From a virus (taxonomy: Duplodnaviria; Heunggongvirae; Uroviricota; Caudoviricetes): a stretch of DNA of 24,428 bases. The stretch lies in the IMG/VR virus record IMGVR_UViG_2734482543_000012. One strand, 5' to 3'. Below are positions 1-5,317 of the stretch, in pieces. The notes beneath the pieces were generated by a model. The model made no database searches, had not been told where the DNA came from, and was given only the letters and a program-made list of their open reading frames with translations. The first letter of the stretch is position 1. Every line of letters starts with the position of its first letter. A program made the position numbers and the translations under genes.

Positions 1-426
1 TTAGTGCGGAAATATTTGTGTAGTGTTCTGTATGTTCTCAGTAAAGAGTAATGAATTATCAAAGGTATAGTAATACCTTTTGTTTTCGTGGATATTTGTA
101 ATCCATCTGAAAACCCCTGCTGTAGCAAGATTTTTCCTGTATTCGTAAAATGATAACTCTCCTGATTTGAATCCTTTTAAGGTGGCTTCTATAAGGCATT
201 TATTTTTTGAAAATCTTACATTTACAACCTTACCCTGTCCTTTTATTAAAACCGTATTATCGTTTTCAAGAACAAGATGAATATTCTCTGTGGCTAAATA
301 GTAAATGTAATGTGAGACATTGTGACGTTTTAGTTCAGAATAAAACCAGTGATAGTTTAAATTATTTCGCACTTTATCGAATATTTGTTTAAAAATGGCA
401 ACCTGAGCCATTGTAGTACCTTCCAT
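1..426 (-). CDS. Hypothetical prophage protein, 141 aa from first ATG (136 aa if translation starts at the second ATG near 411, which has a GAAGG Shine-Dalgarno-like motif 7 nt upstream). No recognisable catalytic motif. Possibly a member of the YdfO/YbcV-like (DUF1398-type) family of lambdoid prophages, by size and position only.
   Basis: Complete minus-strand ORF in the six-frame track with its stop codon at positions 1-3. Sits in a strongly AT-rich segment where stop codons are frequent, so a 141-codon open frame is unlikely by chance. Lies immediately downstream of the 77-aa gene on the same strand. Family assignment is from memory, not alignment. Confidence 0.55.
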
Positions 427-468
427 GTGATATGAGGGGGCGTAGTCTGCACGATTATCTAAATTGCT

Positions 469-702
469 TCAATCTGGTCTAACCTGTTTTCTGAGCAATT
501 CAGTAATGTCACTCTTTTCTTTGTTTGCTTCAGGCGAAACTCTTTTTTCTGAGCACAGTCTCCGGCGGCAGGCTTCAATGACCCAGGCTGAGAAATTCCC
601 GGACCCTTTTTGAACAAGAGCGATGTTAATTTGTTCAATCATTTGGTTAGGAAAGCGGATGTTGCGGGTTGTTGTTCTGCGGGTTCTGTTCTTCGTTGAC
701 AT
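469..702 (-). CDS. Small DNA-binding protein with a predicted ribbon-helix-helix (Arc/MetJ/CopG-like) fold, 77 aa. Possibly YnfO/YlcI-like prophage protein.
   Basis: Minus-strand ORF MSTKNRTRRTTTRNIRFPNQMIEQINIALVQKGSGNFSAWVIEACRRRL... has a basic N-terminal tail, a short beta-strand (NIRF), helix A, a G-x-G turn and helix B, the typical RHH layout. It ends 42 nt before the start of the downstream 141-aa ORF on the same strand, suggesting an operon. Fold call is by eye. Confidence 0.6.
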   Translation of the reverse strand: MSTKNRTRRTTTRNIRFPNQMIEQINIALVQKGSGNFSAWVIEACRRRLCSEKRVSPEANKEKSDITELLRKQVRPD

Positions 703-859: not shown

Positions 860-1090
860 TTATCATTTTGCGGGTCCTTTCCGGCGATCCGACAGGTTAC
901 GGGGCGGAAGGCGCGCGGGTTTTCGCTATTTATGACAATTTTCCGGTTTAAGGCGTTTCCGTTCTTCTTCGCCGTAACCTAATGTTTTTATTTAAAACAC
1001 CCCCTGAAAAGAAAGGAAACGACAGGTGCTGAAAACGGGCTTTTTGGCCTCTGTCGTTTCCTTTCTCTGTTTTTGTCCGTGGAATGAACA
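860..1090. other. cos: cos DNA-packaging site (cosQ-cosN-cosB region). Putative 12-nt cohesive-end sequence at 902-913 (GGGCGGAAGGCG), with the cosB/Nu1-binding region extending to the nu1 start.
   Basis: The sequence ...GGGTCCTTTCCGGCGATCCGACAGGTTACG|GGGCGG......CGCGGGTTTTCGCTATTTATGACAATTTTCCGGTTTAAGGCGTTTCCGTTCTTCTTCG... matches the lambda right-end/left-end junction as I recall it, and sits directly upstream of nu1 as in lambda. The central overhang differs from canonical lambda GGGCGGCGACCT (see findings). Confidence 0.7.

Positions 1091-1636: not shown

Positions 1637-5317
<3,681 letters not shown>

Follow-up and report, generated by a model that had tools for sequence, protein, structure and literature searches.

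The left end of a 24,428-nucleotide (nt) stretch of viral DNA (IMG/VR record IMGVR_UViG_2734482543_000012, Caudoviricetes; the whole of this stretch is called the window below) carries two small genes on the minus strand, which a first-pass annotation had likened to a type II toxin-antitoxin module or a regulator-effector moron. We find that this locus is the familiar ynfO-ydfO-type right-end region of a lambda-like prophage, which is already known and offers nothing new in kind: both protein families are catalogued, one of them with a solved structure, their homologues occur in lambda, and the same arrangement is present in the Qin prophage of Escherichia coli K-12. On balance, we consider it somewhat probable that the two are independently mobile accessory genes of prophages, one coding for a ribbon-helix-helix regulator and the other for a soluble, non-catalytic 'moron' of the binding type, which has a promoter of its own.

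Two catalogued families beside cos

Both open reading frames (ORFs) are present as first described, namely as co-directional minus-strand genes with a spacer of 42 nt (427-468) between the 77-amino-acid (aa) frame, which starts with ATG and occupies 469-702, and a second frame at 1-426 (141 aa) or 1-411 (136 aa). The first-pass annotation had put them between the phage right end and cos, a loose wording for what is the right place: they lie directly left of cos, beyond which come Nu1, with its ATG at 1091, and, from 1611, the large terminase gene. In the packaged chromosome the two are therefore the final genes of the right end. The window as a whole (24 kb) is approximately 96% identical to inducible lambda-like coliphages.

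The families that had been guessed for the two products, YnfO/YlcI-like for the smaller and YdfO/YbcV-like for the larger, were borne out by profile and structure matches. The 77-aa protein (469-702, minus strand) belongs to Pfam DUF3950 (PF13132; 72.8 bits against a cutoff of 25, expectation value (E) 2e-20) and also matches the NCBIfam model YlcI_YnfO_N (35.2 bits against a cutoff of 30). Its residues 1-50 form a near-invariant basic core with an isoelectric point of 11.8, to which a tail of the YnfO type is attached (residues 51-77). Across 57 distinct DNA versions the first 50 codons show a mean dN (nonsynonymous divergence) of 0.05, a mean dS (synonymous divergence) of 0.94 and a dN/dS of 0.05, and are thus under purifying selection; behind this shared core, at least five unrelated C-terminal tails follow codon 50 in the homologues. 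A phmmer search against 1.84 billion representative proteins recovered only 189 matches at E ≤0.001, many of them fragments.

AlphaFold2 predicts for the small protein a basic unstructured arm (residues 1-18), a helix (19-32), a G-S-G-N turn from G33 and a second helix (34-52), with a predicted local distance difference test (pLDDT) score of about 84 over the core and a low-confidence tail that contains a short helix at 63-72. This predicted layout is that of a ribbon-helix-helix monomer, the strand of which would form only in the dimer. By eye, the segment RNIRFP…GSGNFS resembles its counterpart in Arc (FNLRWP…GRSVNS) and also Mnt, the repressors of the immI region of phage P22. The likeness extends to several other features, as these too are small basic phage proteins with an N-terminal strand motif of the form 'xN(I/L/F)R(F/W/M)P' and two helices with a G-x-x-(N/S) turn between them, encoded by a gene embedded against or within the late genes. 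The small gene differs from them in that no antirepressor gene lies near it and in that the resemblance earns no significant score: hhalign placed the DUF3950 alignment in register with the single Arc and Mnt sequences, short of significance, comparison with solved ribbon-helix-helix proteins gave no significant sequence or structure score, and a sequence profile search of the PDB with the DUF3950 alignment returned only a chance match to uL16. Since none of these statistical tests is significant, we go no further than to regard the small protein as probably a DNA-binding protein of the ribbon-helix-helix (MetJ/Arc) superfamily, as the predicted model would have it.

The coding sequence of the small gene also contains a direct repeat, AACCCGCA, in two copies 15 nt apart at 663-685, which corresponds to codons 7-13 (T-R-R-T-T-T-R). 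These codons are four- or sixfold degenerate and are almost devoid of synonymous variation among 58 DNA variants, whereas the neighboring arginine codons vary freely. Such constancy of silent sites may be due to selection on the DNA or RNA itself or, as there are only about three deep lineages, to chance.

The 136-aa protein (1-411, minus strand, with its stop codon at 1-3, exactly at the edge of the window) matches Pfam DUF1398 (PF07166) over profile positions 1-119 of 119 (E 3e-43, 147 bits against a cutoff of 22). It is 76% identical (E 1e-69) to YdfO, whose structure was solved by nuclear magnetic resonance (NMR; 2HH8), and has the same three-dimensional fold, a duplicated alpha-alpha-beta-beta-beta arrangement that stands as an orphan fold. 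Natural variants of the gene show a dN/dS of 0.23, which again points to purifying selection. The residues that are kept across members of the family down to 21% identity (L27, Y35, T41, N43, G84, A96, G99, W103 and Y114) include no acid, base or nucleophile and no typical catalytic residue, from which we infer that the protein acts by binding rather than enzymatically. No hydrophobic segment or signal peptide is found in it (maximum KD19 0.39). The guanine-cytosine (GC) content of the gene is 31.7%, where the rest of the window, with its structural genes, has 54.8%; such a low value is typical of an acquired accessory gene. This composition, a promoter-like site in front of the gene, the variable cargo at this fixed position and the non-essentiality of its lambda counterpart, lambdap78, in CRISPR interference (PMC10695390) would together qualify it as a prophage moron.

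Between its two possible starts, that of the 136-aa form is the better supported, because a conserved Shine-Dalgarno-like GGAAGG (419-424, minus strand) precedes the ATG at 409-411, whereas no Shine-Dalgarno sequence was found upstream of the alternative ATG at 424-426 (minus strand), from which a 141-aa product would result. The GGAAGG lies 7 nt 5' of its ATG and is kept in all upstream variants of the relatives; the RefSeq annotation of a 99%-identical E. coli locus likewise has the 136-aa form. In the window both ORFs share a reading frame, with one TGA and 14 sense codons between them (409-471). This relation is not conserved, since a poly-C tract in the spacer, within the 5' leader of the DUF1398 gene (436-440, minus strand), varies in length, being C5 here and C4 to C6 among the relatives. 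In databases we also came upon 233-aa 'fusions' of DUF3950 and DUF1398 (e.g. P0133, a cluster of 761 members) and set them aside as gene-calling artifacts, in which the TGA was read as tryptophan and a W stands at the position of the stop.

Separable occurrence of the two genes

Homologous DNA is widespread: positions 1-1100 of the window match 4480 of the 5426 complete E. coli genomes (83%), with a query coverage of at least 80% in 2636 of them. In the Qin cryptic prophage of K-12, ynfO-ydfO (b4533-b1549) is the same locus, collinear base for base as nohA-ynfO-ydfO; the present element differs from Qin in that its neighboring morphogenesis genes look intact and in the sequence of its cosN cohesive end. 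The right end of lambda carries both families as well, with lambdap78 as the DUF1398 gene (YbcV-like), lambdap79 as a YbcW-like gene and an often unannotated 64-aa ORF as the YlcI homologue, and the ybcV-ybcW-ylcI genes of DLP12 follow the lambda arrangement. At this same position left of cos, the DUF1398 gene of lambda and DLP12 shows 83% nucleotide identity and the small-gene core 98% amino-acid identity to those of the window. However, in lambda and DLP12 an oppositely oriented ybcW lies between the two genes and is absent here, and the small protein ends in a different tail (…TSEKRAYTSIKSDEE).

This difference was delimited by a blastn comparison of the window with lambda, in which 1-485 is homologous at 83% and 540-1100 at 94%. 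The intervening 54 nt (486-539), which encode tail residues ~55-72, have no lambda counterpart; lambda has in their place 613 nt (2987-3599 of locus L001) with the rightward ybcW/lambdap79 and the 3' end of ylcI. As the YnfO-type tail is mostly encoded by this 54-nt stretch and its last five codons fall within the module upstream of ybcV, the sequence comparison suggests a joint left by deletion or recombination as the origin of the tail. The tight adjacency of the two genes in the window would be a consequence of its ybcW-less (Qin-type) allele and not of functional coupling.

Sampling of viral contigs points in the same direction. Approximately 300 loci were collected with queries of four tail types, a query-biased set whose proportions are only indicative. 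In 89 of the 90 sampled loci with a YnfO-type tail, DUF1398 lies directly downstream; in the ~200 with other tails it is absent from all, over at least 1.5 kb. The next genes in the latter are convergent, and code for a TonB_C lipoprotein, a PerC-family activator, small (membrane) peptides or GnsAB, or else belong to the Rz end of the lysis cassette. The earlier suggestion that the cos-proximal region receives accessory cargo therefore holds, as the TonB_C lipoprotein, PerC and GnsAB genes are found there in other lambdoid loci. Loci that combine other small-gene tails with variable convergent cargo include L231, L085, L165, L200 and L238. On the packaging side the small gene may adjoin a lambda-type cos/Nu1, a divergent Nu1 or, at a distance of 41 nt, the HNH endonuclease gene with which an HK97-type packaging module begins.

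The DUF1398 family, in turn, extends well beyond such prophages. A scan of genome contigs with a narrowed DUF1398 alignment furnished 20 distant loci; at approximately 35% identity, the genes found in Kluyvera, Klebsiella, Raoultella, Pseudocitrobacter and Salmonella diarizonae stand alone near housekeeping or virulence genes (for a sulfur transporter, GAPDH, an aldehyde dehydrogenase, a POT transporter and SopE). The Salmonella enterica subsp. diarizonae locus (L334, 2587-4396) has its stand-alone DUF1398 gene ~700 nt from that of a SopE-family type III effector. Within 4 kb of the DUF1398 gene, none of the 20 loci has a homologue of DUF3950. Taken with the approximately 200 of 300 small-gene loci that lack DUF1398, this shows that the two families do not co-occur as a unit across genomes. 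By operon structure the evidence is divided: the genes are co-directional and separated by a gap of 42 nt with no terminator, yet a promoter-like site precedes the second gene and an opposite-strand gene comes between them in lambda and DLP12.

Regulatory sites and the cos region

The promoter-like site before the DUF1398 gene (TAGACC-16-GATAAT, 9 of 12 matches in a consensus scan) is located at 454-481 on the minus strand, partly within the 3' end of the small gene. The same DNA also precedes ybcV in lambda, in which the small gene is not upstream of ybcV. Overlapping it is a PdhR-box-like palindrome (AACAGGTTAGACCAGAT, 472-488, minus strand), whose match of 10 out of 14 is, by sequence alone, not above chance. 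It is homologous to a site in Qin, AACAGGTCAGACCAGAT, which corresponds to a peak for PdhR in systematic evolution of ligands by exponential enrichment (PMC7660256; position mapped here), and both ybcV and ybcW are activated by PdhR, their mRNA being ~10-fold lower in a pdhR mutant (PMC7660256). As for the expression of other homologues, ylcI is transcribed in K-12 within a convergent ybcW-ylcI excludon (PMC12288877), and ydfO is induced more than 100-fold by ionic liquid, with overexpression of YdfO reported to raise resistance to oxidative stress (PMC4077768); ydfO also responds to overexpression of DicC.

Some 70-100 nt upstream of the small gene, an inverted repeat (ATCAATTAATACG / CGTCATAATTGAT, 772-804), whose 13-nt arms stand 7 nt apart, is a candidate operator; it is kept in all relatives of the lambda-cos type and absent from the HNH-type contexts. 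Further out, ~150 nt upstream of the small gene and 5 nt from cosQ, lies a near-perfect palindromic Fur box (849-867) with a single mismatch to the palindromic consensus, for which 100 shuffles gave 0 matches. Its counterparts in Qin and DLP12 are experimentally confirmed and rank with the strongest Fur clusters of K-12, where they were assigned to nohA/nohB; for the Qin nohA site (position mapped here), binding of Fur was seen in a gel shift (PMC2189734). This box is missing wherever the small gene adjoins an HNH-type packaging module, and the promoter-like site that overlaps it (GTGACA-16-TATCAT, 839-866) points rightward; we accordingly assign the box to the cos/Nu1 module rather than to the cassette. 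When the homologous region of E. coli strain 582 (locus L002) was scanned against Rfam, only chance microRNA-like matches came up.

In the cos region itself, cosQ (GGGTCCT) was located by sequence match at 872-878 and the cosN cohesive end by alignment to the end of lambda at 902-913 (plus strand), the lambda record ending at the base that aligns to 901. The cohesive end is a variant, GGGCGGAAGGCG, which differs from the lambda form GGGCGGCGACCT in 5 of 12 bases amid conserved flanks, and which was seen in only 10 of the 163 lambda-type loci examined. Just 5' of the Nu1 start, in the cosB region, is an inverted repeat with 26-nt arms of 85% complementarity and a 5-nt loop (1010-1066), which lambda possesses too.

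Competing explanations and significance

In the reading that we favor, that of two accessory genes which move independently, both lie antisense to the late operon and would therefore be expressed from promoters of their own rather than from pR'. The functional unit of the small protein would be its first 50 residues, that is, the N-terminal arm, the beta-strand RNIRF, helix A, the G-S-G-N turn and helix B; it would probably serve as a dimeric repressor or autoregulator, with the inverted repeat at 772-804 as a candidate target and with an interchangeable tail. The DUF1398 gene would be a moron, rich in AT and gained by horizontal transfer, whose own promoter-like element carries the PdhR-type site, and its product a soluble cytoplasmic protein that most likely binds a host or phage partner instead of performing catalysis. 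Several points weigh against this picture. The strict co-occurrence of the YnfO-type tail with DUF1398 might reflect a real interaction rather than linkage, and co-transcription of the two genes is likely here because no terminator lies between them. The consensus scan found no sigma-70 promoter of good quality for the small gene, and no k-mer of 7 nt or longer is conserved between the lambda-type and HNH-type regions upstream of it; with no upstream motif common to these contexts, though the putative DNA-contact residues are invariant, autoregulation via an upstream operator is unproven. Furthermore, the published expression data come from the K-12 homologues and not from this element.

A toxin-antitoxin module, or an abortive-infection or defense pair, would have the tail of the small protein as an antitoxin that neutralizes a DUF1398 toxin while its N-terminus represses the operon. 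The short gap between co-directional genes with no terminator would suit it, as would the layout of the small protein, in which an N-terminal DNA-binding module with a variable C-terminal tail is encoded upstream of a larger gene, much as in the antitoxins ParD, RelB and MazE6/7, and the restriction of the YnfO-type tail to loci with DUF1398 directly downstream. However, unlike in those systems, the partner is not a known toxin and co-occurrence is not obligatory, each family being common and occurring widely without the other; in lambda and DLP12 the opposite-strand ybcW separates the pair. Neither protein gave a match to a toxin family or toxin fold, and in PADLOC-DB v2 the DUF1398 protein hit only Csx23 at E 0.025, the small protein having no match at all. 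This Csx23 hit, along with those to Pfam HEPN_AbiA_CTD (15.8 bits against 27) and to a TrpE model of NCBIfam, was rejected as sub-threshold noise. Moreover, YdfO was overproduced for its NMR structure, lambdap78 is non-essential, and the stand-alone chromosomal DUF1398 genes would imply a non-toxic product. The tail, too, is built as expected of a deletion or recombination joint, most of it from 486-539 and its last codons in the ybcV upstream module. We accordingly consider the toxin-antitoxin or defense reading to be very doubtful.

The position of the small gene invites explanations that center on the phage chromosome end. It is always antisense between the lysis or cargo end and the first packaging gene, be this a lambda Nu1, a divergent Nu1 or an HNH gene, it is extremely conserved, and the protein has been reported in capsid-forming phage-inducible chromosomal islands that carry TerS and TerL (PMC13612085). 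Its product might hence act at the lysis/packaging junction, for instance on late read-through, terminase expression or the use of cos, with DUF1398 as unrelated cargo; but no DNA motif is common to the different packaging contexts, and we judge this unlikely. DNA left of cosQ is not known to be needed for cos function in lambda, which also counts against such a role. Of similarly low probability is a broader proposal, in which the invariant 50-residue YlcI/YnfO core, with its swappable tails, is a dedicated lambdoid regulator fixed where the lysis or cargo genes meet packaging genes of any type. As such it could govern antisense or late transcription or events close to cos, or link these with signals from the host by way of the Fur site beside cosQ and the PdhR site before DUF1398, the latter gene being a host-regulated lysogenic-conversion factor that binds a partner.

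An iron-responsive lysogenic-conversion operon, in which Fur at the cos-proximal box represses the leftward transcription of both genes, strikes us as quite unlikely. It draws on the quality of the box, its placement upstream of the small gene and the Fur binding of its K-12 counterparts, though these were assigned to nohA/nohB; the box, as shown above, travels with the lambda cos/Nu1 module, and the only promoter-like site overlapping it faces Nu1. In addition, copper stress, which induces the iron-acquisition genes, lowers the expression of ybcV instead of raising it (PMC13618251). Scarcely credible is a role of DUF1398 as a structural protein of the virion or envelope, for which the only basis is in database labels: 'head protein' (PHROG 413) and the COG-derived 'putative envelope protein' appear to be mistaken annotations, by now carried over into numerous records of phages. 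The gene lies on the strand opposite to the late operon and outside the head module, its product has neither signal peptide nor membrane segment, YdfO yielded a solution NMR structure, lambdap78 is dispensable, and homologues are found in non-phage chromosomal contexts.

The useful outcome of this analysis is a negative one, in that the cassette is not to be kept as a candidate toxin-antitoxin or defense system. At the same time, 83% of the complete E. coli genomes contain DNA homologous to it, and purifying selection on the small-protein core is very strong, which phage biologists may find worth notice. The variation at this site has a further aspect: lambdap79 is reported to trigger the NADase defense Vulcan, and phages that escape it to lose lambdap79 by recombination with Qin (2026 preprint, bioRxiv 10.64898/2026.09.04.749371). 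Without lambdap79, the window carries the trigger-less allele, and because the locus lacks this Vulcan trigger, the alleles found at the right end of such lambda-like prophages may be shaped by host immunity.

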